Notes: generated by a model from the sequence alone, not told the origin. Numbered from the stretch's first letter, positions 14,291 through 40,195 are shown. The stretch: 64,000 nt of DNA from Escherichia coli (GCF_003334335.1 NZ_QOWQ01000025.1), one strand, 5' to 3'. Program-made: numbers and translations.

Positions 14291-14377
14291 GCTGAAAAAC
14301 ATAACCCATAAAATGCTAGCTGTACCAGGAACCACCTCCTTAGCCTGTGTAATCTCCCTTACACGGGCTTATTTTTT
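14291..14377 (+). ncRNA. cyaR: CyaR (RyeE) Hfq-dependent sRNA
   Basis: GCTGAAAAACATAACCCATAAAATGCTAGCTGTACCAGGAACCACCTCCTTAGCCTGTGTAATCTCCCTTACACGGGCTTATTTTTT matches the known CyaR sequence, including the terminator hairpin and U-tail. Confidence 0.9.
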
Positions 14378-14378
14378 A
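14351..14378. repeat. attL core (AATCTCCCTTACACGGGCTTATTTTTTA), overlapping the cyaR terminator
   Basis: Identical 28-mer is repeated at 48032..48059. Confidence 0.85.
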
Positions 14379-14440
14379 CGTACAATAAATTGAAATAAAA
14401 GGATTTATTTCTGGTCACGTCCACACATTGACCACATCGA

Positions 14441-14466
14441 CAAAAAAGCCCCTCGACTGAGGGGCT
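14441..14466 (-). terminator. Rho-independent terminator downstream of ogr
   Basis: Stem AGCCCCTC / GAGGGGCT with loop GACT, followed on the minus strand by TTTTTTG. Confidence 0.6.
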
Positions 14467-14478
14467 TCCTGTTTGTAA

Positions 14479-14697
14479 TTACATCCACATAATTTGCTGC
14501 CCTGACGGCAACGGGTGCGGTCTTACGGCGTGGACTTCTCCCGGCTTCACGATGTATCGCTGTACCGACTCATAAGTGATGAACGTGGCGCTGCAATTCA
14601 CGTTCTGACACTGGTGATAACGCTCTTTTGTCGTGTCAGTGATATAGCGGCTTGTACGCGCATGTGCGGCATGCTGGCATAAAGGACAATGAAACAT
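14479..14697 (-). CDS. ogr: Late-gene transcriptional activator Ogr (72 aa, zinc finger)
   Basis: MFHCPLCQHAAHARTSRYITDTTKERYHQCQNVNCSATF...; ORF 14479..14760 trimmed to the P2 Ogr start. Confidence 0.9.
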   Translation of the reverse strand: MFHCPLCQHAAHARTSRYITDTTKERYHQCQNVNCSATFITYESVQRYIVKPGEVHAVRPHPLPSGQQIMWM

Positions 14698-14778
14698 CGC
14701 GAGCACCTCTTCCGGTTTTGTTGATGTTGCCATTTTAGTTAATTTATCCTTATAAAACAAACAGATAAATAAAACACA

Positions 14779-15942
14779 TCACTCATCATCTTCTGTTTCG
14801 TACTCCACATCAGAAAGCCTTACCTCAAGCTCCAAAGACGTCGTGAAGCCGCTATTATTCAGAAAATGTGTCACCTTAGTGATTGTCCAGTCCTGCTCGT
14901 CTATGACGCGCTTAAAGCCTGACACTTTAACCGGTGTTTCCGTGTAAATATCTGCCCGACCGGTAGCCAGGCTGATGGAGAACTCCGCGACGCCCCGTTG
15001 CAGTTTGTCCCACTTAGCCTGAGCGGCGCGCATGGCCTGCGCTTTTGTGGCATATACCGTGGTCAGGGCAAAAACGTTGTCAGCCTCACCGGCCATGTAT
15101 TCACCTTCGCGCGCTTCCGGTACTTTTGGCGCTTTCTTCTGCGTGACTGGTTTCGCTTTCGGGTGCTCCAGTGCGCGCAGGTGTTTCTCTTTCTTTTTGC
15201 GCTTCAGTTTTACCTTCTGCTTTTGTGGCTTCGGGTCTTTGGTGTGTAACCACTTTGCCGTTACGCCGGTATAGGCTCCACGGTCAGCAATCGCAAAATG
15301 ATGGCGGTCGCCGTCGCTGCGGGTGATGGTAATCTGCGGGATTTTTTTACCGCTGGCCGTCACCCCCTGCCCCGCTTTGAGAAACAGCAGTTTTCCCATT
15401 TTTACCGACACCTCGCCGCCGTTGCGTTCAGCAAGGCGGGTCAGGAATTTTGCATCAGACTCCTGCGACTGGTCGATGTGCGGGATTTTAATTCCGGCCA
15501 GTGACGGAGCGACACTGGCTTCCAGCCTGTTACGGGAGGCTATCGCCTCAACAATCGCACCGAGCGTGGTGTCATGCCAGGAGCCTTCCCGGCGGGAATT
15601 GAGCGTCCCGCGGAAATCTGCACTCCGGGCGCGGATGGTGACCACATCCGGCGCGCCCCGGTGTTCAACCTCATCAACGGTGAATTTCCCTTTGCATACC
15701 AGGGCAAAACCTTTCCAGCCGATATACACCGTCAGGACAGCGCCACGAACCGGCAGCCCGACCTGCCCGTCGGCATCGTTCAGTTCAATATCAAGCTGGT
15801 CAGCTTCAAAGCCCCGGTTATCCGTCAGAGTCATGCTCATCAGACGGTCGCTGATATTGCCGGTAATATCCCTGCTGTCGAGCATCAGCATGTAATCCGG
15901 CGTCAGCGTACTGCCTGCATCAAATGTCAGCGCATCCAGCAT
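14779..15942 (-). CDS. D: P2 gpD-like tail protein (387 aa)
   Basis: Position and length match P2 gpD. Confidence 0.9.
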   Translation of the reverse strand: MLDALTFDAGSTLTPDYMLMLDSRDITGNISDRLMSMTLTDNRGFEADQLDIELNDADGQVGLPVRGAVLTVYIGWKGFALVCKGKFTVDEVEHRGAPDVVTIRARSADFRGTLNSRREGSWHDTTLGAIVEAIASRNRLEASVAPSLAGIKIPHIDQSQESDAKFLTRLAERNGGEVSVKMGKLLFLKAGQGVTASGKKIPQITITRSDGDRHHFAIADRGAYTGVTAKWLHTKDPKPQKQKVKLKRKKKEKHLRALEHPKAKPVTQKKAPKVPEAREGEYMAGEADNVFALTTVYATKAQAMRAAQAKWDKLQRGVAEFSISLATGRADIYTETPVKVSGFKRVIDEQDWTITKVTHFLNNSGFTTSLELEVRLSDVEYETEDDE

Positions 15943-16421
15943 TATCCCGCCCCCATCATACCTGTGAATCTGGTCGCCAGACTGCCGGCCTTACCGATGA
16001 GCGATTCCGCCTGTTTACCAATATCGCCATAAAGCGCGGCCAGTGATTCATCAACGCGGGTGAGCGACAGCGTAAAATCAATTTTCCGGGGTGTGCCGTC
16101 TGCAAAGAAAATACTCCCTGTTTCACTCACCCTGCTGATGACATACATACCGTAAATCATGCCGGTGCCATCCAGCAACGGCCACGCCCGGCCTTCCTCT
16201 GCCATCAGCCTGAGCGTGGTCATCGTCAGCTTCCCGCCGGTCAGTTCGGGATAAAGCACACCGGCAAGCGTGATGTTTTCCTCGCCCACACCGAGAAACT
16301 GAAGGGCATCCCGTTTACCGATACGGGAATTTGACGGCCAGCGATAATCTGATTCACGCTGCATGGTCTGGTGTGGCAGCGTCTGGCGCATAAAAACAAA
16401 CATACCTAACGCGAGCATCAT
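15942..16421 (-). CDS. U: P2 gpU-like tail protein (159 aa)
   Basis: Position and length match P2 gpU. Confidence 0.9.
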   Translation of the reverse strand: MMLALGMFVFMRQTLPHQTMQRESDYRWPSNSRIGKRDALQFLGVGEENITLAGVLYPELTGGKLTMTTLRLMAEEGRAWPLLDGTGMIYGMYVISRVSETGSIFFADGTPRKIDFTLSLTRVDESLAALYGDIGKQAESLIGKAGSLATRFTGMMGAG

Positions 16422-16435
16422 TTTTCGTCACCTCC

Positions 16436-18883
16436 TTAACCGTCATGCATCATGCTGGCACGGGCGCGCGCACGTTTATCCCGCTCGTATTTTTCGAGCG
16501 CATCCTGTAACTGGCGGTCGAGCTGAGTCCCCGGCGCAGTACCGCCCGTCAGACTGATGTGATATTCGTTTTTACTCTGGTCCACATAAGAGCGGCCAGC
16601 CGGTGCCGTAACCGGCTGATAAGCCTGATAACCTGCATAAGAGCTGGTCGCCGGAATATAACCACCGGTGCCATACGTGGCGGCATGAGTTCTGGCGGCG
16701 GTCTGGTCAAGTGTGTCTGACTCTTTGTTGATAACACCGAGTTTTTCCAGTACCCAGTCAATACCGCTGCGCAGTTTGTTGAACGCATTAAGCGGCAGCA
16801 TCAGCGCGTCAGCCAGTGCCTGCCCGAACATGACGCCCGTGTCACGGCAACGGTTCAGGGTGTCCCGGGTGGCTTTGACCGGGGCAATCAGGTTTTTAAA
16901 CCACTGCCACGCGGCCTGTAACTTTTCACCCAGCCAGTTAAACAGCGGCTTAAGTGGCGTGAACAGTTCCCCCACCGGCGCAAATGCCGCTTTCAGCCCT
17001 TCAACCACACCGCCAAAGAATGCGCTGACAGGCTCCCAGTATTTACGGATAAGCAACGCCCCGGCGACAATGGCAGCCACCACGGCCACAACCGGCCAGC
17101 TAATCGCACTGATGGCCGTCATAACGGCACTACCAACCGTCGTGAAGATTGCCCCCATTGCGCCTGCTGCCGCGATAATGGCATTGATGCCGGTGATAAC
17201 CGGCCAGGCTACGAGGCCAATGGCACCGATGACACCAATCAGCGCCAGTGCACCACCGACAATGATGCCGATGGTTGACGCCAGTGATTTGTTTTTCTGT
17301 ATCCAGCCGTCGAGTTTTAACACATACTTTGTGGCCGTCTGCGTGAGCTTACGCAGTGCGCCTTCCTGCTGGTCAAACAGGTCAGTCCCCACCGCCTCAT
17401 AAGCGGACTGAAACTCCTTAAAGTCACCGCCGAGGTTGTCCTGCATGATATTTACCAGCTCAGCGGTCTTCCCGTCTGAGGCTTTAAACGCAGCGGTCAG
17501 TTTGTCCAGCTTTCCAGTTGAGGCGGCAGTCATCAGCACGGCGGCGGCTGAGCTGGCCTCCTCCCCGAAAATAGTTTTCATGTATTCAGCCTGCTGGGCA
17601 GTACCGAGCCGGTTTTTCTCAAAACTGGCCTGCATTTCTTTCAGAATGGTAAATACTGGTCGGGTGTTTCCCTTGCTGTCTGAGGTTTTCACACCAAGCT
17701 CTTTGAGTGCATCCCATGCTTTTCCCGTCGGTGCCTGCAGGCGGCTTAACACGGCACGGCTTCCCGTCCCCGCCATTGAACCAGTAATTTTTGCGTCATG
17801 CAGCGCCCCGACCATTGCGGCGGTTTCTTCAATGCTGACACCGGCATTTTTTGCCACTGGTGCGGCATAGGTCAGCGCATCGCTCATACCGTCAAAATCG
17901 GCGGCGGTTTTGTTCATCGTCATGGAGAGAACATCCCCGATATGAGCGACCTTATCGTTTGAAAGCTGAAAGGCGGATTTCATCCCCATCAGCAGGGCGG
18001 CGTTTTCTTCCATCGTGCGACGGTTCGCCAGCGCCATATTCAGCGTGACCGGCGTTGCCGCCTGAATGGCATCAACATCCCCACCGGCTTTCGCAATAAT
18101 AATCTGCGCACCGGCTGCATCATCTGCCGAGGCTGCGGTATTGTCGCCGAGCTGGCGCGCCTGCTTGCGTAGTGCAGCCATTTCGGCGGAGTCTTTTGCC
18201 ACACCGAGCACGGCCTGCAATTCTGAGTTTTTCTGCGCAAACTCATAACCGGGCATCAGCAACTTAACTCCGGCCATCGTTCCCGCAGCAGCAATCCCCA
18301 CACCGGCAGCGCCCACTGAGGCCATATTTCCGGCCAGTTCCTTTCCGGCCTGATAACGCTGTTTGACTGCGTTAAGTTTTGCCTGTTGTGCGCTGACACG
18401 CGCCAGTGCATCGCGCTGACGGTTAAGTTGTGCGGTGGTTTCACTGATACGGTTTTTCAGCCCCTGCTCATCATGTGCAAGATTGCGGGTATTAATTCCC
18501 ACAGCGGCCAGTTCCCGCTGCTGGCGTTTAACAGAATCCGTCAGGCGGTTATATTTCGCCTGTAAGTCCTCCGCCGCACGCTTTGCGGATTCCAGCACTT
18601 TCGCCTGAGCACGGGTTGGACGTTCGGTGTTTTTAAACTGTGTGGCAAGGGCTTCGGCCTCCTGCCGTGCCTTTTCAAGTGCATGACCAGTCACGGCGAG
18701 CTGTGCACTGGTCTTGCGGAATCCCTCAATACGGGATGCGTGACCGTTCAGCTCGCGCAGTGATTTTTGTGTTTCCCGGATATCCCCCGACAGCGACCTG
18801 CTCGCTGTACGGATGGATTTAAACGGGCGGGATGCCTGGTCAACAGCCCTGAGCAATACCTGTAATTTTACATTGTTACTCAT
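16436..18883 (-). CDS. T: Tail tape measure protein gpT (815 aa)
   Basis: 815-aa Ala/Gly-rich coiled-coil protein with hydrophobic segments; length matches P2 gpT. Confidence 0.9.
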   Translation of the reverse strand: MSNNVKLQVLLRAVDQASRPFKSIRTASRSLSGDIRETQKSLRELNGHASRIEGFRKTSAQLAVTGHALEKARQEAEALATQFKNTERPTRAQAKVLESAKRAAEDLQAKYNRLTDSVKRQQRELAAVGINTRNLAHDEQGLKNRISETTAQLNRQRDALARVSAQQAKLNAVKQRYQAGKELAGNMASVGAAGVGIAAAGTMAGVKLLMPGYEFAQKNSELQAVLGVAKDSAEMAALRKQARQLGDNTAASADDAAGAQIIIAKAGGDVDAIQAATPVTLNMALANRRTMEENAALLMGMKSAFQLSNDKVAHIGDVLSMTMNKTAADFDGMSDALTYAAPVAKNAGVSIEETAAMVGALHDAKITGSMAGTGSRAVLSRLQAPTGKAWDALKELGVKTSDSKGNTRPVFTILKEMQASFEKNRLGTAQQAEYMKTIFGEEASSAAAVLMTAASTGKLDKLTAAFKASDGKTAELVNIMQDNLGGDFKEFQSAYEAVGTDLFDQQEGALRKLTQTATKYVLKLDGWIQKNKSLASTIGIIVGGALALIGVIGAIGLVAWPVITGINAIIAAAGAMGAIFTTVGSAVMTAISAISWPVVAVVAAIVAGALLIRKYWEPVSAFFGGVVEGLKAAFAPVGELFTPLKPLFNWLGEKLQAAWQWFKNLIAPVKATRDTLNRCRDTGVMFGQALADALMLPLNAFNKLRSGIDWVLEKLGVINKESDTLDQTAARTHAATYGTGGYIPATSSYAGYQAYQPVTAPAGRSYVDQSKNEYHISLTGGTAPGTQLDRQLQDALEKYERDKRARARASMMHDG

Positions 18884-19303
18884 TCGTGTTTCCGCTTCGC
18901 CGGAGTGCCTTTTCGCGCCATGTGATGAGTTCGGTCAGGCTCATGGGATACAGTTCTGATGGCGGCCAGTGAAATATCACTGCCACATCCGCCATCAGGT
19001 CATCGACCGAGAGATTTTTCGGAAACGTTACTGCACCGAGTTCGGCGACAAAAAACCGACCACCTTACCGGCCAGCGCCACAAGGTCAGGCAGTTCCAGC
19101 GCGGCGACCTCCTGCTCGGTCAGCATCGGTGCCGTCATGCGCGGCAGTACCTTAATCAGTGCATCGACTTCGGAGTTTGCAACCGCAGCCAGACTGACAC
19201 CGCGCAGCGTCCCCGCACTGGGTTTCATCAGCGTGACCTGTTCGATAACCTGCTCACCACGCTTGACCGGATTGTCCAGGGTAATCACATTTTCTTTGTT
19301 CAT
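18876..19303 (-). CDS. E: Tail assembly chaperone gpE (19028..19303) and frameshift product gpE+E' (to 18876)
   Basis: E is a 91-aa ORF. The slippery heptamer TTTTTTG (19049..19055, minus strand) lies in codons G-F-L near the E 3' end. Manual -1 frame reading continues to a TAA at 18876..18878, overlapping the T start, as in P2. Confidence 0.75.
19049..19055 (-). other. Programmed -1 ribosomal frameshift slippery site (T6G) for E/E'
   Basis: GGTTTTTTG on the minus strand, conserved in position relative to P2-type E/E' tail chaperones. Confidence 0.7.
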
Positions 19304-19359
19304 GGTTTTCTCACTTCTGAATCAGGGTTAACCGGTCAGCCAGGCTGACCGGATGAAAA

Positions 19360-19878
19360 TCACAGGCCGATATTTCGGCGGTGTTGCTCCAGCCGGTCGA
19401 CGCCGTTCACCTTCTCAATCATGTTGATGGTGTCGATTTCGACCAGCTCCTTACCGTCCATCGTCAGCCGGAAATAGGTGCAGACCACGGAGATTTTCGA
19501 CTCGGTGTCTTCTCCCTGTTTACCCTCGCCGGTGTCGATTTCTTTCTGACGTCCACGCATGACCACTTCGACGGCCACCGTTTCGCCGGTATCGTCGCGC
19601 TGGTAAGAACCGGCAAAACGAATCGGCACGGCATCCACACCGGTTGCGGCGTAAAGCTCCCAGATAACCGAATCCGGGAAGCCACCGAGCGACCACTCCA
19701 TTGACAGCGCATCGTCATCAAGGCCGAGGTCTACCGGTGCGCTTCCGTTCATCCCCGCACCGCGATAGTTTTCGAGCTTACGGGTCAGTTTTGGCAGCGT
19801 GACGGACTTTGCAACGCCCTGATAGCTGTAGCCGTTCAGAAAGACGTTCATTAACTTGAGTTTGCGCGGCATTGCCAT
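19360..19878 (-). CDS. FII: Tail tube protein gpFII (172 aa)
   Basis: Position and length match P2 FII. Confidence 0.9.
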   Translation of the reverse strand: MAMPRKLKLMNVFLNGYSYQGVAKSVTLPKLTRKLENYRGAGMNGSAPVDLGLDDDALSMEWSLGGFPDSVIWELYAATGVDAVPIRFAGSYQRDDTGETVAVEVVMRGRQKEIDTGEGKQGEDTESKISVVCTYFRLTMDGKELVEIDTINMIEKVNGVDRLEQHRRNIGL

Positions 19879-19890
19879 CGGTCAGGCTCC

Positions 19891-21081
19891 TTAATTGCTG
19901 TTAACCGAAGTGACCAGATTTGCCAGGTATTTATCGGTAATACGCTGGCGCAGGGTCAGGTTTTCAAGAGGAGGCACCGGGGTATAGTCGTAGTCGATAT
20001 ACAGTTTTCCGGCCTTGAGGGTTTCCGCATCGTTGGATTCTTCGCTGAACCAGCAGGTCGCATCCACGATATAGCCGTTTGTTTTCAGCTCACGGAATTT
20101 GGCATTGATGCCGTCAACGATGTCGCGAATCAGCGTTGCGGTGATGGGCTTGTCCACCGCCCACATGTGCGCCTCAGCCATCGTGTCGGCCAGCACCTGC
20201 GCGGTGCGGGTGTAGTTTTCAAAGAGGAACAGCGGGTCATCCGAGCAGGTACGGTTACCCCAGAAGCGGAAACCGTCACGGCGAATCAGCGTTGTGACAC
20301 CTGACTCATTAAGCAGGTCAGCATCGGTGCCGGACTCCTGCAAATCCCAGAATACAGAGGCACTGATGCCGGTAACACCGTTTACCCCGACATTGGACAG
20401 CGTTTTATGCCATCCCTGCTCCTGGTCGATTCTGGCACGCAACCCCAGCGCACGGGCGGTGGCATACGCGGTGGCGGTGGTACTGGTGACCGTATCCCAT
20501 GCGAGGAAATCCGGCCAGATGACCATCAGCTCACGCTGGCTGAAATTCTGGCGGTAGGCTTTCACCTCGGAAATGGTCTTACAGCCCCATGCGCTGATAT
20601 ATCCGAAAGCACGCAGCTTCTGACAGACGGATGCCAGTGCAACAGCCACCTCTTTGGTATCCAGTCCCGGCACACCGAGAATACGCGGTTTAACACCGGT
20701 TACCGACTCCGCCGCCAGCAGGGCTTTCAGTCCGGTGTACTGACCGTTTTCGTCGGTGGTGCCGATGATATTGGAAACGGTCTGCGCGAGTTTCGTTTCC
20801 TCGTCGTCGCCGGTGCCGTCTTCCACACGCACGACAACGGTGACCGGTTTTGACTGGTCGGCGATGGCCTGCAACGATGCCGCCAGCGTGCCTTTTTTAC
20901 CGGCCTTTGCAATTGCGCTCTGTACATTGGTTATCAGCACCGGTTTATTGAGGGGGAAGGTTTCCGCATCCGCATCGCTGGCCGTGCAGACCATGCCGAC
21001 AATGGCCGTGGATACGGTGGAAATGACGCGGGTGCCGTCGTTAATCTCCAGCACCTGCACGCCGTGATGATAGTCACTCAT
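19891..21081 (-). CDS. FI: Contractile tail sheath protein gpFI (396 aa)
   Basis: Position and length match P2 FI. Confidence 0.9.
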   Translation of the reverse strand: MSDYHHGVQVLEINDGTRVISTVSTAIVGMVCTASDADAETFPLNKPVLITNVQSAIAKAGKKGTLAASLQAIADQSKPVTVVVRVEDGTGDDEETKLAQTVSNIIGTTDENGQYTGLKALLAAESVTGVKPRILGVPGLDTKEVAVALASVCQKLRAFGYISAWGCKTISEVKAYRQNFSQRELMVIWPDFLAWDTVTSTTATAYATARALGLRARIDQEQGWHKTLSNVGVNGVTGISASVFWDLQESGTDADLLNESGVTTLIRRDGFRFWGNRTCSDDPLFLFENYTRTAQVLADTMAEAHMWAVDKPITATLIRDIVDGINAKFRELKTNGYIVDATCWFSEESNDAETLKAGKLYIDYDYTPVPPLENLTLRQRITDKYLANLVTSVNSN

Positions 21082-21185
21082 CCGTTTAACTCCGTGGTTA
21101 ATGGGTGCAACTATTTTCTGTTGTGCAGAGTATGAGGCGCTATTTGACCTGGCTGGTCAGTGGATGAAACAACAGATAAAGAAAA

Positions 21186-21204
21186 GGCGGGCAATTCGCC
21201 CGCC
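21186..21204 (-). terminator. GC-rich stem-loop, candidate terminator upstream of FI
   Basis: GGCGGGC / loop aattc / GCCCGCC, flanked by an A-run on plus (U-run on minus). Confidence 0.4.
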
Positions 21205-21481
21205 TGTCCTGATTTGTACTCACTCATTTTCCGCCTGACAATTTACATAGCCCAAATGCTATCAAATCTGACAGCCTGCTTTGAGCGAGTAACTAAATTT
21301 GATTTAAATAAATTATAAGGATTCAAATGTTATTGGCACAAATTCCTGAGATGCAAACAGTCACACTAAGTGTTCAAACAAGGTTCTGGACTACGGCTAA
21401 CTCATCAGTTAAGTTTGTTTCCGACCTGTCGTTTCTTCCCTGTCAGGAGTCACTTTTCGTGTTATTTTTTAAGGATGTTTT

Positions 21482-22261
21482 ATGAGTAATGAAACACAAT
21501 CATTCCTTAGTCAATTGCTAATATCCATAATCTCTATATCTTTAGGGTCATTTCTTTTTGCTGGAATCCTAGAGAGCTACAAAAAAGACCAAGATCTTCA
21601 GGAGGAGTTTATAAAGGATTACTTTAGGCCAATGATGAAATTACAAAGTTCTTGTTCATCTTCACATAATGAACTATTTCTAAAGTATGGAGAGTTATCT
21701 GCTTCTTATCAGCTCATGTATAATGAAATAGTACATATGGCAATGAGCCCTGATTCAGAATTAGGACAACATTATGAAGTTCTCCCGATATCTCTTATTA
21801 AAACAAATGAAGAGTTAAAAAAAAGAGTTGAAGATCTTGAAATGACGGTAAAAAAATGCAATGTCGATTTATTCCTTAAGTACGAAGAGCTTGCATTAGT
21901 TACTGGTTCATATCCAGAGTTTAAGAGGCTGGCGAAAAAACACACTGACACAATTAACTCCATCTATTCAGAAAGACAAAAAAAAGCAAAGGGAAATGCA
22001 AAAAATATAGACCCTGATCAACTAATTCCATTGATGCGGAAATATATTGCCATGGATCCACACACCAATGTAAACAAATCCATGCTTGCCAGTGAAATTG
22101 ATAACATATCTAAACTAACAACACAGCATAATTTGATAATGGCAGAATATGAGGAGTTAATTTTCAAAGAAGATAATGATTTATTTATAACTCTTCATGA
22201 TCTTTATGCAATCAAAATTAGTGAAAAGTATTCAGGTGGATTTATCAGTTGGATATTTTAA
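21482..22261 (+). CDS. Cargo island 1 (Z/fun position): hypothetical 259-aa protein, N-terminal TM helix plus helical domain
   Basis: AT-rich ORF on the opposite strand to the flanking tail genes, with an RBS (AAGGA) 7 nt upstream. Hydrophobic segment LLISIISISLGSFLFAGIL near the N-terminus. Sits where P2 carries Z/fun. Confidence 0.75.
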   Translation: MSNETQSFLSQLLISIISISLGSFLFAGILESYKKDQDLQEEFIKDYFRPMMKLQSSCSSSHNELFLKYGELSASYQLMYNEIVHMAMSPDSELGQHYEVLPISLIKTNEELKKRVEDLEMTVKKCNVDLFLKYEELALVTGSYPEFKRLAKKHTDTINSIYSERQKKAKGNAKNIDPDQLIPLMRKYIAMDPHTNVNKSMLASEIDNISKLTTQHNLIMAEYEELIFKEDNDLFITLHDLYAIKISEKYSGGFISWIF

Positions 22262-22339
22262 AACATGATAACTCATCAGATACAATGCTAACTATGTAGA
22301 ACGCGTAAATCTGTGAAGGTTACCAATGTGTTAGGTAAT

Positions 22340-22363
22340 GTCCGCTCCTTGCACAGAGCGGAC
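22340..22363. terminator. Stem-loop between cargo 1 and gene G, possible bidirectional terminator
   Basis: GTCCGCTC / loop cttgcaca / GAGCGGAC perfect 8-bp stem; the flanks are only weakly U-rich. Confidence 0.35.
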
Positions 22364-22412
22364 TGTCAGATTAGGCTTTACTCTGTGCTATAGATATGTC
22401 AGCTCATACAAC

Positions 22413-31561: not shown

Positions 31562-32059
31562 TTAAGCCGGTACGCCGCCAGCGGTACGCCAGACTGTGAC
31601 CAGTTTTTCCAGTGAATGCTCACGCTGACCGTAACCGGCACCCGGCAGGGACGCCCAGATATTGCGACAGCGTGAAATGGCGCGCTCAATGCGCCCCGCC
31701 CGGATGTCATCCAGTGCACCGCGTTCGCGGATCAACTGAATGGCAAGTCTGTCCTGTGACAACGGACTGAAATCCGGCAGGGCAAGCTGTTTGCGGTAGT
31801 GCGGCCAGAACAGGTAAAGCTGCTGATAGCGACCGGAAGCCGTGGACTTTTCACCGCGACGGTTAAATACCTTCGCCGGTCGGCCATGCGCGAACGGGTG
31901 GTCACTGTAGTCGGTGAAAATTTCCGGCTTCCCGTCCAGTCCGGTGACTATCACGTCATAGCCCCGGTTTTTCGTCAGCGGATGATTCGCCGTCCCTTCG
32001 GACACGGCCAGCATGTCGAGAAAGGCGGCGATATTCTGATGCGTGTTAATTACCGGCAT
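31562..32059 (-). CDS. K: Endolysin gpK (165 aa)
   Basis: Position and length match the P2 K lysozyme. Confidence 0.9.
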   Translation of the reverse strand: MPVINTHQNIAAFLDMLAVSEGTANHPLTKNRGYDVIVTGLDGKPEIFTDYSDHPFAHGRPAKVFNRRGEKSTASGRYQQLYLFWPHYRKQLALPDFSPLSQDRLAIQLIRERGALDDIRAGRIERAISRCRNIWASLPGAGYGQREHSLEKLVTVWRTAGGVPA

Positions 32060-32340
32060 TACTGTTTCCCCCTGCCCTTAAAGCGGCGCTGAATGGCAAT
32101 CTCAATCACCTGATAACCGGCGATACCCAGCATGGAGCCAATGCCGCACACCGCAGGCAGTGACAGGTCAGGAAACTGCACCAGAACAACACCGGCAACC
32201 ATTGAGACAAAACCACCGAGCAACATGCGCCCGATAAACAGACGCGGGGTGATGGGTTCACCACCGGCAAGCACCTTGCCGACAACAATCAGCACCCCAA
32301 TCATGAAAAGCGACAGGACGCTTTTTTCTTCTGCTGTCAT
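32059..32340 (-). CDS. Y: Holin gpY (93 aa)
   Basis: Small protein with TM helices at the P2 Y position. Confidence 0.88.
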   Translation of the reverse strand: MTAEEKSVLSLFMIGVLIVVGKVLAGGEPITPRLFIGRMLLGGFVSMVAGVVLVQFPDLSLPAVCGIGSMLGIAGYQVIEIAIQRRFKGRGKQ

Positions 32341-32343
32341 GCG

Positions 32344-32547
32344 TTACTCCCACAGATTGACAGTTTCAGCCACGGGCGCGGTCTGAACGTCGGGCAGTTC
32401 GACGGCGGTGCCGTGTGGCAGCACCGCACCCAGTTCAGCCAGTCCCGGATTTGCGGCGAGCACGGTCTCAACCACGCCCTCAGAGCGCCCGTAATACCGG
32501 ACACAAATGGCGTCGAGCGTGTCGCCCTGTAGCGCAAAGGTCTTCAT
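32344..32547 (-). CDS. X: Tail protein gpX (67 aa, LysM-like)
   Basis: ORF 32344..32616 trimmed to MKTFALQGDTLD..., giving the P2 X length. Confidence 0.8.
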   Translation of the reverse strand: MKTFALQGDTLDAICVRYYGRSEGVVETVLAANPGLAELGAVLPHGTAVELPDVQTAPVAETVNLWE

Positions 32548-33056
32548 CAGATTTGACTCACGATGCAGCGCGGCTTGTCCTGGATGCGCGCCACTGCCCA
32601 GCGCATATCCCGCCACAGCTCATCAATGGTGCTGTCAATGCTGTCGGCCTTCTTGTCTCCTTTCGCACTGGCATCCACGCCGCGGTAACGCTCATAAAGC
32701 GACGCGGTCGCCATCGCACACACGGCGCGCTCGTAGTAAAAAACTTTGATACTTTCACCGTCGATGTCGTCCGCCGGAACGTCCGCCAGACGCGTAAAAC
32801 CGGCGGCAATTTTCTGTTCGCGGTACTCGTACAGCTCCGCATTTGTTTCCGCCATGCCTGACTTGATGGCCTCACGCAGACGGGCGGGGGCGACGGTCTG
32901 CTCAAGGCGCATACGTTCCCGGACGCGCTTCGGGTCGATATCGGGAAAAAAGAACGTGTTTTTAATCACCGGCTCGTCGCCTGCCGGTTGCGGGATGACC
33001 ACCGTACCCTCACCGGACACGGGAGCCTCCTTTCGCGGAATAATCAGCGTCATCAT
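32547..33056 (-). CDS. L: Capsid completion protein gpL (169 aa)
   Basis: ORF trimmed to MMTLIIPRKEAPVSG..., giving the P2 L length. Confidence 0.85.
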   Translation of the reverse strand: MMTLIIPRKEAPVSGEGTVVIPQPAGDEPVIKNTFFFPDIDPKRVRERMRLEQTVAPARLREAIKSGMAETNAELYEYREQKIAAGFTRLADVPADDIDGESIKVFYYERAVCAMATASLYERYRGVDASAKGDKKADSIDSTIDELWRDMRWAVARIQDKPRCIVSQI

Positions 33057-33155
33057 GACTACCTCTGAAAAGTCGGGCGGTGGACGCCGGTACAGCGTCA
33101 GGTGATTCACCCTCACTGACCGGCGTGCCGCCCTGGCGCGGGGCGCATTCGGTTG

Positions 33156-33899
33156 TTAACTGGCTTTCTTTTTCGGGCGTCCACGTTTTGCCGGTGTCAC
33201 GCTCCGGGTCTTACGCGGGGCGCGGGTGGCCGCTTTGGGCTGCGGCTCCGGCTTCGGTTTCAGCTCCCGCTCCAGTCGTTCAATCTCTTTTTTGACGCCT
33301 GCCTGACAGTCGAGCTGTGTCGCACGTTGCAGGTGAGCCAGCGCACCGGCGGCATCACCAGCGTCACGCAGAAACAGACCGGTGATTTTGTGCAGCTTTG
33401 CGCGCACTTCATCAGGCATGTCAGCCGTGGCGGTCAGTTCAATGGTCTCCGTCAGCAGGCGGGTATCCACAGACTCACCGGCAGCGTGAGCACGCATGGC
33501 CGCGAGCGCCACCTCCTCGGTGAACATGTACGGCGGGGGGCGGCGGTGTTTACCCGGCATGGTCAGACCGTACTTCAGGGCATAACGGGCAATCTCCAGC
33601 GCACCGGCAATATCGCCGGTATCCAGACGCCACAGCATGACCGTCATCAGAATGTCATCCTGTGCACCTTTGCCCTGCTCCAGCACGCCGTTCACCCACG
33701 GCAACCAGAACGGCAGCAGTTCGCGTTTTTTCGCGGCCTTCAGCTCTTTTGAATAAATCGCTTTCAGTGTGCGCTGGTCTGCGGCCAGCTTGACCAGCAT
33801 CTGCTCATAGACAGTTGCATGTCGCAGCGGGGCGGCTTCCCGCTGCGCGGTCATCGCTGCCGAGACCCGCATCATGTGGCGCTGTGCGGGACTCGTCAT
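33156..33899 (-). CDS. M: Terminase small (endonuclease) subunit gpM (247 aa)
   Basis: Position and length match P2 M. Confidence 0.9.
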   Translation of the reverse strand: MTSPAQRHMMRVSAAMTAQREAAPLRHATVYEQMLVKLAADQRTLKAIYSKELKAAKKRELLPFWLPWVNGVLEQGKGAQDDILMTVMLWRLDTGDIAGALEIARYALKYGLTMPGKHRRPPPYMFTEEVALAAMRAHAAGESVDTRLLTETIELTATADMPDEVRAKLHKITGLFLRDAGDAAGALAHLQRATQLDCQAGVKKEIERLERELKPKPEPQPKAATRAPRKTRSVTPAKRGRPKKKAS

Positions 33900-33902
33900 C
33901 GG

Positions 33903-34976
33903 TCACGCTCCCGGCTCTGCGGTCGCCTTAGCCGGTGTGGAGAAATCACCGACCTTAATTTTTTCCACCAGACAACCGGCGGCGTAGTCTTCCACCACGT
34001 AATCAATGTTCATTGACTCGTAGTTCTCCACGCGGTCGAGTTTCGGGTTTTCCACAATCACGCGGCGATGGCTGTCATCCATGTAGTAGATGGACAGGTT
34101 TTCCAGCTTCGTGATGAGCATCGCATCCGCCGGAAAGTACGGGACGCGTACCGCCGGCAGGTTACCGATGCGTTTCTGGCTGATGATAACGTCAGCGGCC
34201 AGCATTTCGCTGCTGTCCTGCTCCTTGTTGACGATGGGGAAATACTTGTCCGCCAGTAGCTGACGTCCCACAATCACCACAAGGTCAGGGTCTTCCTGAT
34301 ACCACGGCTCAATCAGGTTGTTGGTCGCATCCATCACCAGTGCATCGAGGCTGGCATAATCACCGCCCTTACCCACGCGGATGACCTCAGAGGTTGTGTG
34401 ACCTTCCTCGTCAGTAACCTTGCTCATCACGCGCGCCGGGGCTTCATTGCGGTATTTCTGCAGCCAGCCGACCGCCACATCCTGCAGCATCGGATTGCTG
34501 CTGCGGTCAGAGGTTTCGGCACGCTTCACACCGTTAAAACCGGCCATGATGAAATCAAGGGACTGGCGTTTGATAATGGCGTTACGGACACGGAGCTGGA
34601 AATCCTGATAACGCGCCCACAGGTCAAGCGTTTTGTAGCGGATATAAAAATCGAAGTTAATCTGGTCGCATTCGTACTTGTTTGACGCCAGCTTCGAGAA
34701 GTCCTTCGGCTGACGCTCGGTGCCACCGGCGGTGTCGGTGGTGCTGGCGATGGAGCCGGTGACACCGATACCAATTTTTTCCCCTTTCATTTCGCTGACC
34801 GGCACAATGTTGATGCGGGTCAGAAAGTCAGAGGACTCCTGCATGGTGTTCATCAGGGTCTGGGTGACCGACGGTTCAACGGTGAATTTTTTCGACACAT
34901 CACCGGCGTCGATGCCGTTCAGTTCGGCAACACGGGACAGGTAGGCATTAAATTTAAAGCGGGTTTCCTGGCGCAT
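33903..34976 (-). CDS. N: Major capsid protein gpN (357 aa)
   Basis: Position and length match P2 N. Confidence 0.92.
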   Translation of the reverse strand: MRQETRFKFNAYLSRVAELNGIDAGDVSKKFTVEPSVTQTLMNTMQESSDFLTRINIVPVSEMKGEKIGIGVTGSIASTTDTAGGTERQPKDFSKLASNKYECDQINFDFYIRYKTLDLWARYQDFQLRVRNAIIKRQSLDFIMAGFNGVKRAETSDRSSNPMLQDVAVGWLQKYRNEAPARVMSKVTDEEGHTTSEVIRVGKGGDYASLDALVMDATNNLIEPWYQEDPDLVVIVGRQLLADKYFPIVNKEQDSSEMLAADVIISQKRIGNLPAVRVPYFPADAMLITKLENLSIYYMDDSHRRVIVENPKLDRVENYESMNIDYVVEDYAAGCLVEKIKVGDFSTPAKATAEPGA

Positions 34977-35034
34977 AGTTTTTCCTGAAATTAAGGGTTA
35001 ATCGTGAAGGTTTTCCCGGACTGACTGACGCCGG

Positions 35035-35889
35035 TCAGCAGTTCGTCATCAGGGCGTCACCGCCACCACCGGTGGCCTTGCTGCGGCGCTGCTGGGTCAG
35101 ACTTTCGGTGTGGTCGAGACTGTTTTTCAGGCGGGTGAATGCCTGGCTGGTTTCATCCGCCCTGTCAGTCACCTCCTGCTTAAGTGCGGAAAAGGCGGTT
35201 TCCATCTCAGCGAGGCGCTGCTCAGTGGCGCTCAGTTTTTCCTGCACATGTTCAGCGACAGCGGTCACCGCTTCATGCACATCATTCAGACGGGCGTCAT
35301 CGCTCGCCTGTTTGCGGCCAAAAATGGATTTCACCTTTTCGGTCAGGGCGGTGAACACGGTTTCAGGCAGGTCTTCAAATTCCAGCTCAACAGGCGTTGC
35401 CACTGAAATCAGGTTTTCAGGGCTTAATTTGAAGCGGTTCAGAGGGTTATGTTTTGCCGTGCGGCAGAATTCCAGGTATTCCGTGCCGAGGCTTGCCGGG
35501 TCATCTGTGACAGCCAGCCCCACCAGATAACATTTGCCGGTGTTGGCAAAGTTCGGCTGAATTTCCATTGAGGTGTAGACCTTCTGCGCGGCCTTGTTCA
35601 TCGCGATAAGGTCATCGGTCGGGGTGATTTTCGCAAACAGCGCCCATTTGCCTTTCAGCGCCGAATCATCGTCAATCTTTTCGGCCTTCAGTTCGGCCAC
35701 ATCGCCATAACGCTTAAAAATACCGTCAGGCAGGATGCCGCGCAGATGTTCCAGGTTAATGCGGCAACCATAGACTCGCGGGTCAAAGGTTTCGGCCATT
35801 TCCTGAATATCCTGCGCACTGATGACACGCCCGTCACAGGTGTCACCCTCAACGCCGATACGAAAGAATTTTGAGACTTTTTTTGCCAT
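35035..35889 (-). CDS. O: Capsid scaffolding protein/protease gpO (284 aa)
   Basis: ORF trimmed to MAKKVSKFFRIGV..., giving the P2 O length. Confidence 0.9.
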   Translation of the reverse strand: MAKKVSKFFRIGVEGDTCDGRVISAQDIQEMAETFDPRVYGCRINLEHLRGILPDGIFKRYGDVAELKAEKIDDDSALKGKWALFAKITPTDDLIAMNKAAQKVYTSMEIQPNFANTGKCYLVGLAVTDDPASLGTEYLEFCRTAKHNPLNRFKLSPENLISVATPVELEFEDLPETVFTALTEKVKSIFGRKQASDDARLNDVHEAVTAVAEHVQEKLSATEQRLAEMETAFSALKQEVTDRADETSQAFTRLKNSLDHTESLTQQRRSKATGGGGDALMTNC

Positions 35890-36062
35890 TGTCAGGAGTC
35901 CTGAATAGTGATTAGAGGAGTCACATGTCGGCATCAGTTTCCCGACGATGCGCATCCTCCGCCATCAGTCCCGGATGGCTTATCACTGACACAACAGCAC
36001 CTTAGCGAATCGCGGGGCGCGACTCAGTAGCCTTGCCGTGTATTCATCACGGCGAGGTATTC
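35890..36062. promoter_or_regulatory. Divergent late promoter region (P_O / P_P) of the P2-like capsid and terminase operons
   Basis: Intergenic region between divergently transcribed O and P, as in P2 where Ogr-dependent promoters sit here. No individual element confidently assigned. Confidence 0.45.
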
Positions 36063-37835
36063 ATGACCATCACCACAGACACCACTCTTTTACACGACCC
36101 GCGTCGTCAGGCGGCGCTGCTGTACTGGCAGGGGTTTTCCGTGCCGCAGATTGCCGCCATGTTGCAGATGAAACGCCCGACGGTGCAGAGCTGGAAACAG
36201 CGCGACGGCTGGGACAGCGTTGCCCCCATCAGCCGTGTCGAAATGAGTCTGGAAGCGCGACTGACCCAGCTCATCATCAAACCGCAGAAAACCGGCGGTG
36301 ACTTCAAGGAAATTGACCTGCTGGGACGCCAGATTGAACGACTGGCGCGGGTCAACCGCTACAGTCAGACCGGCAACGAGGCAGACCTTAATCCGAACGT
36401 CGCTAACCGCAACAAAGGCGGGCGTCGCAAACCGAAAAAGAATTTTTTCAGTGACGAAGCCATCGAAAAGCTGGAGCAGATTTTCTTTGAGCAGTCTTTC
36501 GACTATCAGTTGCACTGGTATCGCGCCGGGCTTGAGCACCGCATCCGCGATATCCTGAAATCCCGCCAGATTGGCGCAACGTTTTATTTTTCCCGCGAGG
36601 CGCTGCTGCGCGCCCTGAAAACCGGCCATAACCAGATTTTTCTGTCGGCCAGTAAAACGCAGGCGTATGTGTTCCGCGAATACATCATCGCCTTTGCCCG
36701 TCTGGTTGACGTTGACCTGACCGGTGACCCGATTGTCCTGGGCAATAACGGCGCAAAACTAATTTTTCTCGGCACCAACTCCAACACCGCACAGAGCCAT
36801 AACGGCGACCTGTACGTCGACGAGATTTTCTGGATCCCGAATTTTCAGGTACTGCGTAAGGTGGCATCAGGTATGGCCTCACAGAGTCACCTGCGTTCGA
36901 CCTATTTCTCCACCCCGTCCACGCTGGCGCACGACGCCTACCCGTTCTGGTCAGGTGAACTGTTCAACCGGGGACGCGCCAGCGCCGCCGAACGCGTGGA
37001 AATCGACGTCAGTCATAACGCCCTTGCCGGTGGGCTTCTCTGTGCGGACGGCCAGTGGCGGCAGATTGTCACCATTGAGGACGCCCTGAAAGGTGGCTGC
37101 ACGCTGTTCGACATTGAGCAGCTCAAACGTGAAAACAGCGCCGACGATTTTAAAAACCTGTTCATGTGTGAATTTGTTGACGACAAGGCGTCGGTGTTCC
37201 CGTTCGAGGAGCTGCAACGCTGCATGGTCGACACGCTGGAAGAATGGGAAGACTATGCGCCGTTTGCCGCGAATCCGTTCGGCTCCCGCCCGGTATGGAT
37301 TGGTTACGACCCGTCACACCGTGGCGACAGCGCCGGATGCGTGGTACTGGCACCGCCGGTGGTGGCCGGTGGCAAATTCAGAATACTTGAGCGCCACCAG
37401 TGGAAAGGCATGGACTTTGCCACCCAGGCGGAATCCATCCGCAAACTCACCGAAAAATACAACGTCGAATACATCGGTATTGATGCCACCGGCCTTGGTG
37501 TCGGCGTGTTCCAGCTCGTGCGCTCGTTCTATCCCGCCGCGCGCGACATCCGCTACACGCCGGAAATGAAAACCGCAATGGTGCTCAAGGCAAAAGACGT
37601 CATCCGCCGTGGCTGTCTGGAATATGACGTCAGCGCCACCGACATCACCAGCTCGTTTATGGCTATCCGCAAGACCATGACCAGCAGCGGACGCAGTGCC
37701 ACCTATGAGGCCAGCCGCAGCGAGGAAGCCAGCCACGCCGACCTCGCCTGGGCGACCATGCACGCCCTGTTAAATGAGCCACTCACCGCCGGTATCAGCA
37801 CCCCGCTGACATCCACCATTCTGGAGTTTTACTGA
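36063..37835 (+). CDS. P: Terminase large (ATPase) subunit gpP (590 aa)
   Basis: ORF trimmed to the ATG at 36063 (MTITTDTTLL...), giving the P2 P length. Confidence 0.92.
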   Translation: MTITTDTTLLHDPRRQAALLYWQGFSVPQIAAMLQMKRPTVQSWKQRDGWDSVAPISRVEMSLEARLTQLIIKPQKTGGDFKEIDLLGRQIERLARVNRYSQTGNEADLNPNVANRNKGGRRKPKKNFFSDEAIEKLEQIFFEQSFDYQLHWYRAGLEHRIRDILKSRQIGATFYFSREALLRALKTGHNQIFLSASKTQAYVFREYIIAFARLVDVDLTGDPIVLGNNGAKLIFLGTNSNTAQSHNGDLYVDEIFWIPNFQVLRKVASGMASQSHLRSTYFSTPSTLAHDAYPFWSGELFNRGRASAAERVEIDVSHNALAGGLLCADGQWRQIVTIEDALKGGCTLFDIEQLKRENSADDFKNLFMCEFVDDKASVFPFEELQRCMVDTLEEWEDYAPFAANPFGSRPVWIGYDPSHRGDSAGCVVLAPPVVAGGKFRILERHQWKGMDFATQAESIRKLTEKYNVEYIGIDATGLGVGVFQLVRSFYPAARDIRYTPEMKTAMVLKAKDVIRRGCLEYDVSATDITSSFMAIRKTMTSSGRSATYEASRSEEASHADLAWATMHALLNEPLTAGISTPLTSTILEFY

Positions 37836-38869
37836 TGAGCAAGAAAAAAGGGAAAACACCGCAACCTGCGGCAAAAACAATCACCGCCAGCGCCCCGAAA
37901 ATGGAGGCATTCACCTTTGGTGAGCCGGTGCCGGTACTCGACCGCCGTGACATTCTGGATTATGTCGAGTGCATCAGTAACGGCAGATGGTATGAGCCGC
38001 CGGTCAGCTTTACCGGTCTGGCAAAAAGCCTGCGTGCTGCCGTGCATCACAGTTCACCGATTTACGTCAAACGTAATATTCTGGCTTCAACGTTTATCCC
38101 GCACCCGTGGCTGTCCCAGCAGGATTTCAGCCGCTTTGTGCTGGATTTTCTGGTGTTCGGTAATGCGTTTCTGGAAAAGCGTTACAGCACCACCGGTAAG
38201 GTCATCAGACTGGAAACCTCACCAGCAAAATATACCCGTCGTGGCGTGGAAGAGGATGTTTACTGGTGGGTGCCGTCCTTCAACGAGCCGACAGCCTTCG
38301 CGCCCGGCTCCGTGTTTCACCTGCTGGAGCCGGATATTAATCAGGAGCTGTACGGCCTGCCGGAATATCTCAGCGCCCTTAACTCTGCCTGGCTGAATGA
38401 GTCGGCCACGCTGTTCCGCCGCAAGTATTACGAAAATGGCGCACATGCCGGATACATCATGTACGTCACCGATGCCGTGCAGGATCGCAACGATATCGAA
38501 ATGCTTCGCGAAAACATGGTCAAGTCGAAAGGCCGCAACAACTTTAAAAACCTGTTTCTCTATGCCCCACAGGGGAAAGCCGACGGCATTAAAATTATCC
38601 CCCTCAGTGAAGTGGCGACGAAGGACGATTTTTTTAATATCAAAAAAGCCAGCGCCGCTGACCTGCTGGACGCGCACCGCATCCCCTTTCAGTTGATGGG
38701 TGGCAAGCCGGAGAACGTCGGGTCGCTGGGTGATATTGAGAAAGTGGCAAAGGTCTTTGTCCGCAATGAGCTTATCCCGTTACAGGACAGGATCCGCGAG
38801 ATAAACGGCTGGCTCGGTCAGGAGGTCATCCGCTTTAAAAACTACTCACTGGACACTGACAACGACTGA
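37835..38869 (+). CDS. Q: Portal protein gpQ (344 aa)
   Basis: Position and length match P2 Q. Confidence 0.92.
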   Translation: MSKKKGKTPQPAAKTITASAPKMEAFTFGEPVPVLDRRDILDYVECISNGRWYEPPVSFTGLAKSLRAAVHHSSPIYVKRNILASTFIPHPWLSQQDFSRFVLDFLVFGNAFLEKRYSTTGKVIRLETSPAKYTRRGVEEDVYWWVPSFNEPTAFAPGSVFHLLEPDINQELYGLPEYLSALNSAWLNESATLFRRKYYENGAHAGYIMYVTDAVQDRNDIEMLRENMVKSKGRNNFKNLFLYAPQGKADGIKIIPLSEVATKDDFFNIKKASAADLLDAHRIPFQLMGGKPENVGSLGDIEKVAKVFVRNELIPLQDRIREINGWLGQEVIRFKNYSLDTDND

Positions 38870-38873
38870 ACAT

Positions 38874-38896
38874 CGCCGCCTGCGGGCGGCTTTTTT
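38874..38896 (+). terminator. Rho-independent terminator after Q
   Basis: Stem GCCGCC / GGCGGC with loop TGCG, followed by TTTTTT. Confidence 0.7.
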
Positions 38897-39144
38897 ACAC
38901 CCCGTCATCCCCCCTCACACGCTCACCACCGCACAAAACACCCCGCAGACACACAACGCCTCAACGGGCAGACTAAGCGCCGTCACGACGCGCTGAGACG
39001 CTGAAAAAATACAATCAGCACCACCGTCAGCGCGCAGTGCTTTCCCCGCCTCGCCCGCCCGCTTCATGGGTCGGTTTTAATGCAGTTGCATAAACATAGT
39101 ACAAGCGCGCCAGTCAAGCCTAGCGCACATACATAGAGAACGTA

Positions 39145-39181
39145 TTTAAACATGCAAAATGATGCACCCTATAGGTGCATT
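39145..39181 (-). terminator. Candidate terminator downstream of cargo island 3
   Basis: Stem ATGCACC / GGTGCAT with loop ctata, followed on the minus strand by CAUUUUGCAUGUUU. Confidence 0.45.
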
Positions 39182-39192
39182 CATATTAAACA

Positions 39193-40194
39193 TCACCGAG
39201 CCATCTTGACTGCATAATGAACACAAAAATAATGTTCTCCCGCATATCTAAAATGATGTTCAATTTTTCTCAAACCTATATATGGAGTCTCCACTTCTTT
39301 AATCCCAACTATCTCATGAGATTCTACACCAATATCTACCGGAGTAATCTCTTTTAGATAATCAATGTATCTCTCACACCAAGCATCAAATTTTGCACCA
39401 GTATAATAAGCAATTAAAAACAAGCGTTTAACATTAATAGGATTATAGTTACCAATTAGCTTTGAATAATGCTTTAATATGTTAGCTTGATCTAGAGATT
39501 TTAAAATCAATGCTTCTATTATAGCAAATAGATTTCCTTTATCTTCAATAACAAGATCTAATTCACCCGCACTTTTACCAGATTGAGACTCTCCCTCTCT
39601 AGTTTGATCTTTTACCTCATAATTCTTAGCTAATAACATATCCCGTATAAAATCATTAAAATCATCTTCACCATATCCTTTAGCAGAGCGACGCCCCAAT
39701 CTTTGAAGCACCCAAGATAAATCACTATCAAACTTTATAAAATTCAAAGGACGCTGCACTCGACCATCCTTTGATATTAAGCTTATACTATTAAGATTTA
39801 ACAAATTAATCCTTTGCCTGATTAATTCATCAATATATCCAGAGTAACTATTATTATCTAACACTACGATATGCTTATCAAAAGTAGTGGCTGCATTAGC
39901 AACTGCACAAACAACTATATCCTTAATATCCTCAGAACTATTCGGCACTGGTGTACGCAATATCTTGCCTGAAGGAGCTTTAGATAACTCAGACTCCCAC
40001 TTCTTAAAAAACAAAAAAGAATCCTTGTTGTTTCCGCAAGACTTTAAATAACCTAAGCGAATTTTTCCATCAGCATCAAGAATCAACTCATTTTCACCAT
40101 TAACAATGGTTTCAATAAAAAAACCGCTAAAAACTTTAACATCAGAAATATTAGCAGCAACAAATTCAGGACACAAACAAACAGCACAAAGCAT
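39193..40194 (-). CDS. Cargo island 3: 333-aa partner/effector protein of unknown family (possible nuclease)
   Basis: AT-rich ORF whose ATG lies 1 nt after the upstream ATPase stop. Contains a D-x3-E-x-K-like stretch (ELDLVIEDKG); no family confidently recognised. Confidence 0.6.
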   Translation of the reverse strand: MLCAVCLCPEFVAANISDVKVFSGFFIETIVNGENELILDADGKIRLGYLKSCGNNKDSFLFFKKWESELSKAPSGKILRTPVPNSSEDIKDIVVCAVANAATTFDKHIVVLDNNSYSGYIDELIRQRINLLNLNSISLISKDGRVQRPLNFIKFDSDLSWVLQRLGRRSAKGYGEDDFNDFIRDMLLAKNYEVKDQTREGESQSGKSAGELDLVIEDKGNLFAIIEALILKSLDQANILKHYSKLIGNYNPINVKRLFLIAYYTGAKFDAWCERYIDYLKEITPVDIGVESHEIVGIKEVETPYIGLRKIEHHFRYAGEHYFCVHYAVKMAR

Positions 40195-40195
40195 A

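Follow-up and report, generated by a model that had tools for sequence, protein, structure and literature searches.

Predicted -1 ribosomal frameshifting at the E/E+E' site in the tail operon of a P2-like prophage of Escherichia coli

Long-tailed phages share a conserved frameshift that lies between the genes of the tail tube and the tape-measure protein, as stated in the passages on this subject in PMC3091744 (for Xu, Hendrix and Duda 2004) and in the review PMC5009743. In phage P2, according to PMC3091744, which cites Christie et al. 2002 (J Bacteriol 184:6522, the source for E and E+E') and Xu et al. 2004, the 91-aa E protein and the 142-aa E+E' protein have a common start codon, and the longer one arises through a -1 shift at TTTTTTG; no RNA structure was found downstream of this site. 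Both products, E and E+E', are essential according to the P2 literature, and the P2 GenBank record describes E+E' as '-1 frameshift; essential tail protein'. The function of such protein pairs has been described for phage lambda, where gpG, together with the G portion of gpGT, forms a coat on the tape-measure protein, while the T domain, which is made by frameshifting only, recruits the major tail (tube) subunit so that polymerisation starts (PMC5009743). The 30:1 ratio of G to GT is critical in lambda, and both proteins are absent from the virion (PMC5009743). The efficiency of frameshifting in P2-like phages is 2- to 3-fold above the roughly 1:30 of lambda (PMC5009743).

Here we describe the corresponding site in a stretch of 64,000 nucleotides of Escherichia coli DNA (GCF_003334335.1 NZ_QOWQ01000025.1), the whole of which is termed the window below. 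An earlier note, made from the sequence alone, had pointed to a conserved E/E' programmed -1 frameshift in this DNA.

The prophage and its E/E' locus

A BLAST comparison of the whole P2 genome with the window revealed a complete, colinear P2-like prophage at 14351..48059. Its ends carry two identical copies, in direct orientation, of the 28-bp att core AATCTCCCTTACACGGGCTTATTTTTTA (14351..14378 and 48032..48059). The flanking DNA belongs to the E. coli chromosome (genes yegR, yegS and gat), and the prophage has an intact ogr gene. The tail genes are located on the minus strand in the order FI, FII, E, T, U, D, which is colinear with P2, and gene E is found between FII (tube) and T. The F operon begins with the sheath gene FI (19891..21081, 396 aa, 390/396 identical to P2 gpFI), followed by the tube gene FII directly upstream of E (19360..19878, 172 aa, 172/172 identical to P2 gpFII). 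On the other side of E are the tape-measure gene T (16436..18883, 815 aa, 800/815 identical to P2 gpT), gene U (15942..16421, 159 aa, 156/159 identical to P2) and gene D (14779..15942, 387 aa, 383/387 identical to P2), U and D being the genes that complete the FETUD operon. All five genes around E have their full length and an uninterrupted reading frame, at 98-100% identity to P2. The earlier note had taken the frameshift as support for a functional tail module, which appears reasonable in view of these genes, and from their sequences the module can fairly be inferred to be intact.

The prophage also carries three low-GC cargo islands that occupy the classical variable slots of P2. One of them is a Pycsar system and two include proteins with no match in Pfam or PADLOC. 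The frameshift itself is of less interest than these defence-cargo islands.

The 601 bases between 18800 and 19400 were compared with phage records, 74 of which are 95-99% identical, P2 (AF063097) being among them with 98.0%. The matching stretch of P2 is annotated with FII, E, E+E', T and a 'site of -1 translational frameshift'. Gene E, as given by the ORF list and by translation, covers 19303..19028 on the minus strand (19028..19303 in ascending order) and its zero-frame product is the 91-aa gpE, a tail assembly chaperone. Its stop codon is TAA (19030..19028) here and TGA in P2. Close to the 3' end of E, direct reading gives the zero-frame codons GGT (19057-55), TTT (19054-52) and TTG (19051-49), i.e. 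an in-frame heptamer of the X XXY YYZ type, T TTT TTG, at 19055..19049 on the minus strand, in which codons 84-85 of 91 are Phe-Leu. This is the sole in-frame slippery heptamer within E, it matches the P2 join at 19684 and it adjoins the misc_feature at 19685 of P2 by which the frameshift site is annotated. The T6G slippery sequence proposed in the earlier note was thus found in the proper frame. The note had placed 'GGTTTTTTG' at 19049..19055; these positions hold the T6G, but the two G's of that string are located outside of them, at 19057..19056.

The -1 frame is bounded on both sides of the heptamer. By direct reading, a TAA stops this frame at 19067..19065, 4 codons 5' of the heptamer, and together with the stop codon of E this confines a productive shift to 19064..19031, an interval with no slippery site besides the heptamer. 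The -1 ORF is open from 19064 up to the TAA at 18878..18876. Translation of the -1 frame from the re-read G19049 yields VAELGAVTFPKNLSVDDLMADVAVIFHWPPSELYPMSLTELITWREKALRRSGNTNE (57 aa), so that the E' extension, 57 codons and the TAA, occupies 18876..19049 on the minus strand. The note had claimed a continuous extension up to this TAA and had named an early -1 stop after the slip site as the observation that would speak against it; both reading and translation find the 57 codons open, with no stop before 18878..18876. The E' stop sits inside ATGAGTAA at the beginning of T. E' has 8 nt in common with the T ORF, the last base of its final codon GAG is also the G of the T start ATG (18883..18881), and E+E' ends 5 nt past this start codon. 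The overlap of E' with the start of T holds in this sense, but the TAA itself lies 2 nt after the ATG and not on it, as the note had it.

E' exists only as the C-terminal portion of the predicted 142-aa E+E' fusion. The gpE part matches Pfam PF10109 (Phage_TAC_7) with residues 7-85 (E 8.8e-12) and PHROG 103 'tail protein' (6e-45), and the fusion matches PF06528 (Phage_P2_GpE) with residues 104-139 (E 2.3e-21) as well as PHROG 1756 (tail protein) with residues 82-142 (2.5e-28), the latter alignment beginning at the slip site. A search of NCBIfam with E and E+E' gave no family, and a PDB sequence search gave no solved homologue, its sole match being irrelevant (E 0.88).

Both deduced proteins are identical to those of P2 (gpE in 91/91 aa, gpE+E' in 142/142 aa) and the P2 record annotates the same site, which bears out the view of the earlier note that the tail-chaperone frameshift of P2 is reproduced here. 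In the 428 nt that encode E+E', P2 differs at 8 nucleotides, and every one of these differences is a synonymous third-position change in the frame read there: 6 lie 5' of the slip, in the E frame, and 2 lie 3' of it, in the E' frame. Note that one of the two downstream differences changes the E stop from TGA to TAA, yet it is a silent change from GTG to GTA in E'.

Chance, conservation and the coding signature of the -1 frame

An open -1 frame might be thought of as a chance feature of GC-rich DNA, with no product, and a part of the statistics of the window is in line with this. TTTTTTG occurs 30 times as compared to 21 +/- 5 expected from shuffles, and 4 of 100 shuffles reach 30, i.e. the excess is weak at best and the heptamer cannot be called enriched; moreover, the -1 frame is open for at least 57 codons at 7.3% of the codon positions in the long ORFs of the window. 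The 63 other selected ORFs contain 76 in-frame slippery heptamers, just two of which have a -1 extension of at least 30 codons beyond the zero-frame stop, one being in an antisense ORF and the other reading into the downstream gene. The whole E/E' arrangement is not explained by chance, and the evidence from the single sequence is only moderate; we regard homology and conservation, rather than single-sequence statistics, as the decisive evidence.

A more sensitive search retrieved 87 further records at 60-80% identity, from phages of Klebsiella, Yersinia, Salmonella, Erwinia and Burkholderia. We examined P2 and eight diverged relatives from other Peduoviridae genera (186, PSP3, EtG, Kp4882-2, ENT90, vB_YenM_31.17, ST15-OXA48phi14.1 and vB_YenM_42.18), with the same mechanical test on each; the diverged relatives reach down to about 65% nucleotide identity. 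An in-frame heptamer near the end of the E homologue is present in all nine (T6G in eight, T6C in vB_YenM_42.18), and in all nine the -1 frame continues from it for 57 or 58 aa. Other in-frame heptamers in the E genes of the relatives lead to extensions of just 0-16 aa. In 10/10 phages the E' stop is located inside ATGAGTAA or ATGAGTGA at the start of the tape-measure gene (ATGAGTRA overlap), and the heptamer is near-invariant in these ten while the flanking third positions vary.

The differences in the E' frame, given for codon positions 1/2/3, are 6/4/15 in Kp4882-2, 11/8/16 in 186, 18/11/32 in ENT90 and 13/11/32 in YenM_31.17, and the remaining diverged relatives have a similar excess at the third position. 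Such an excess is the signature of a translated -1 frame, and it argues for purifying selection 3' of the slip site. Against a chance origin stand the length, the sequence and the coding signature of the extension, which are conserved in the eight diverged relatives down to about 65% identity, as well as the PF06528 match at 2e-21. The Pfam match, the conservation and the third-position excess together refute the chance reading, to which we give no credence at all.

The question of how E' is translated deserves a separate comment. RefSeq/PGAP splits the identical sequence into two CDSs, a 'phage tail assembly protein' and a 39-aa 'GpE family phage tail protein', and several phage records likewise annotate E' separately. 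According to this E' would be a separate gene that starts at the internal ATG 18995..18993 and needs no frameshift, and an ATG or GTG is indeed present at this position in 10/10 phages. It is the earliest possible start (ATG/GTG/TTG) in the -1 ORF, there being none before codon 19. However, the -1 frame is open already from the heptamer in 10/10 phages and not merely from the ATG, and residues 9-18 of E' (FP..LS.DDL), which are upstream of this first possible start, are conserved at the protein level across the relatives. As this motif is conserved and the -1 ORF is closed on its 5' side and has no earlier start, it would be translated only by frameshifting from E. The alignment to PHROG 1756, beginning at fusion residue 82, i.e. 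at the slip site, and the invariance of the heptamer amid varying third positions also speak against a separate gene, as does the P2 record, in which the joined product is the one named an essential tail protein. In addition, no Shine-Dalgarno-like sequence was seen before the ATG by direct reading of GTCGATGACCTGATG. A separate 39-aa gene is thus very unlikely in our view. In practical terms, automated annotation (RefSeq/PGAP, many phage records) splits off E', and the 142-aa product needs to be restored by hand.

RNA elements near the slip site

The 116 nt around the site fold more stably than shuffled sequences (z = -3.2, in a single-sequence fold). A 5-bp hairpin, CGCCG-AACU-CGGUG, is located at 19047..19034, and it is pairable in 88% of the cells in the alignment of the ten phages as opposed to 26-56% for slid controls. 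It begins 2 nt after the heptamer, which is too close for a classical stimulator. In the ten phages the hairpin displays no covariation beyond shuffles, as 239 of 500 column shuffles do equally well, and covariation makes an unfavourable contribution (+1) to the consensus fold. The pairs that do not vary fall on Ala/Glu/Gly and Pro codons which are conserved in the two overlapping frames. A downstream stimulatory RNA structure was rejected for these reasons, i.e. covariation is no better than in column shuffles and the pairs are explained by conserved codons.

Upstream of the heptamer there is an SD-like AAGGTG at 19066..19061, at a distance of 5 nt, which is present in seven of the ten phages and replaced by GAGGTG in an eighth. 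It encodes a conserved Lys-Val. In dnaX, the upstream SD-like spacing that stimulates -1 shifts is 10-14 nt, and the 5 nt found here is shorter.

A second, G.U-rich hairpin (19076..19055) ends exactly at the T run and is terminator-like, if weakly so, by a simple scan. It is of interest in connection with transcriptional slippage, by which RNA polymerase would place one U too many in the transcript of T6, so that ordinary translation, with no slip of the ribosome, would yield ...GFF-VAELG.... The homopolymeric T6 run needed for such an event is present, and the hairpin that precedes it could pause the polymerase. Efficient transcriptional slippage, on the other hand, generally requires a run of about 8-9 or more A/T, as compared to which six is short. 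Conservation concerns the heptamer as such, in a fixed frame and with G (in one phage C) as its last base, and not just a long T run; this is what slippage of tandem tRNAs predicts. The P2 event is also regarded as translational in PMC3091744 and PMC5009743. We consider a transcriptional origin extremely improbable. The two mechanisms would differ in the peptide that spans the junction: transcriptional slippage would lead to VVGFFVAELGAVTFPK with Phe85 (VVGFFVAELG...), +34 Da relative to the Leu85 form, whereas ribosomal -1 slippage after Leu85 would lead to VVGFLVAELGAVTFPK (VVGFLVAELG...).

It can also be speculated that the slip site is not 'naked' and that the two hairpins, 19076..19055 and 19047..19034, tune the efficiency of frameshifting or pause RNA polymerase, while the strictly conserved ATGAGTRA overlap could also couple the translation of T to the few ribosomes that have shifted frame. 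We think that this is improbable. If true, the flanking hairpins would help to explain why the efficiency in P2-like phages is 2- to 3-fold higher than in lambda.

Proposed mechanism and comparison with known systems

The anatomy of the site, its identity with P2, its conservation and the coding signature of both frames were observed directly in this work. On the basis of these sequences we predict, with a high degree of confidence, that ribosomes undergo at this site the programmed -1 frameshift known for E/E+E' of P2, and no feature of the sequence speaks against it. The majority of ribosomes would read E to its own stop and make the 91-aa gpE, and a minority would slip back by one base on U UUU UUG, with tRNA-Phe (UUU) in the P site and tRNA-Leu (UUG) in the A site. 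The tRNAs would re-pair on UUU UUU, G19049 would be read twice and reading in the -1 frame would continue with GUC GCC GAA..., the product of the slip being the 142-aa E+E' (...GFL-VAELGAV...NTNE). By analogy with lambda, the shared N-terminal Phage_TAC_7 domain may bind gpT, and the E' (GpE) domain, which occurs in the fusion only, may engage the tube protein gpFII. A fixed rate of slippage would then set the ratio of E to E+E' without any regulator.

The E/E+E' site is already known: GenBank has carried an annotation for it ever since the P2 genome record, and primary papers and reviews cover it. Of 5426 complete E. coli genomes, 1582 (about 29%) contain it at 95% nucleotide identity or more. 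The significance of the present case is that it confirms the intact tail operon of the prophage, and it carries little weight as a discovery.

It is instructive to compare the site with other frameshifting systems. The dnaX-type sites, where an SD-like element upstream and a hairpin downstream act as RNA stimulators, differ from it in having a conserved stem-loop 5-9 nt past the heptamer, with covariation, which was not encountered here. The similarity to the G/G-T genes of lambda is in the position between the major tail (tube) and the tape-measure genes, in the two products with a common N-terminus and in that no downstream RNA structure is obligatory. The P2-like phages differ from lambda in that they are contractile-tailed, and the heptamer of lambda, G GGA AAG, is unlike the T TTT TTG found here. 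Among the relatives, orf51/orf52 (gene H) of phage 186, gp23/gp23.5 of PSP3 and EtG_27/28 have the heptamer, a 57-aa extension that ends in ATGAGTAA and a conserved E', even though the N-terminus of their E part is 20 aa longer (111 aa) and the nucleotide identity is about 75%. The closest counterpart is the gpE/gpE+E' pair of P2 (AF063097) itself, which shares the position within FI-FII-E-T-U-D, the product lengths of 91 and 142 aa, the heptamer, the frame and the 8-nt overlap with T; the present copy differs from it in that it is part of a resident prophage that has other cargo genes at the three variable slots.

Prophage boundaries and accessory islands

The element is a complete P2-like prophage of 33.7 kb, bounded at both ends by an exact 28-bp direct repeat, AATCTCCCTTACACGGGCTTATTTTTTA (14351..14378 and 48032..48059), which is the P2 att core. 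Its insertion site adjoins yegR/yegS/gat in the E. coli chromosome.

Three regions of this prophage carry accessory genes. The first is a low-GC island (35% GC, minus strand, 27762..29664) that lies between S and V in place of P2 orf30. It encodes a Pycsar cyclase, PycC, of 462 aa (PADLOC PDLC00764, 1e-128) and a PycTM membrane effector of 179 aa (PADLOC match, 9e-28) whose gene overlaps that of PycC, i.e. the island is a complete Pycsar anti-phage system. The second island (32-36% GC, minus strand, 39193..41863) occupies the P2 old/tin slot and adjoins cos. Here we find a 555-aa AAA/ABC-type ATPase, whose top PADLOC matches are NsnB (2e-51), HEC-03B, PDC-M55A and AriA (3e-28). The ORF that comes next encodes a partner of 333 aa, which has no match in PADLOC and, even at E <= 10, none in Pfam. 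The two genes probably constitute a two-gene defence system in which the effector is uncharacterised. The third region, which separates G from FI, is the Z/fun slot, a known hotspot of lysogenic conversion, where a 259-aa ORF (21482..22261, plus strand) lies in 38%-GC DNA and runs on the strand opposite to the tail genes. This ORF has no PADLOC match and no significant Pfam match, and is an uncharacterised moron.

Annotation and RNA structures around E/E'

In RefSeq/PGAP and in several phage records E' is annotated as a separate 39-40-aa "GpE family phage tail protein", and not as a frameshift fusion with E. E. coli 50579417 (NZ_CP033884.1, 609..728) is an example of such a stand-alone annotation. 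The E/E' DNA of this strain is identical to that of the window. An internal stop makes its tape-measure gene a pseudogene; the tape-measure gene of the window is intact.

Two minus-strand hairpins border the slippery run. A 5-bp stem (19034..19047) begins 2 nt 3' of the run; among the 10 phages 88% of its cells are pairable, and its covariation is no higher than in shuffles. On the other side, an 8-pair stem (19055..19076), four pairs of which are G.U, ends at the slippery T run and was flagged as terminator-like.

A further minus-strand hairpin (19332..19352), with a perfect 9-bp stem and a 3-nt loop (CCGGTCAGC-CTG-GCTGACCGG), is situated within the 56 nt that separate the stop codon of FII from the start of E, and has no T run on its 3' side. 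A "partial terminator tI" is annotated at the equivalent position in phage 186. The hairpin could cause E, T, U and D to be expressed at a lower level than the sheath and tube genes, or else stabilise the upstream mRNA.

The tail fibre region compared to P2

The homologue of the tail-fibre gene H (22943..25238, minus strand) encodes 764 aa in the window as opposed to 669 aa in P2, as deduced from the P2 H coordinates. Since the P2 segment 13252..13461 aligns with 79-88% identity at three or four sites in the window gene that overlap or adjoin one another, the sequence suggests internal tandem duplications of ~130 bp, especially at 24249..24720. Gene G and the C-terminal part of H are only ~82% identical to P2, the host-range determinants have therefore diverged.
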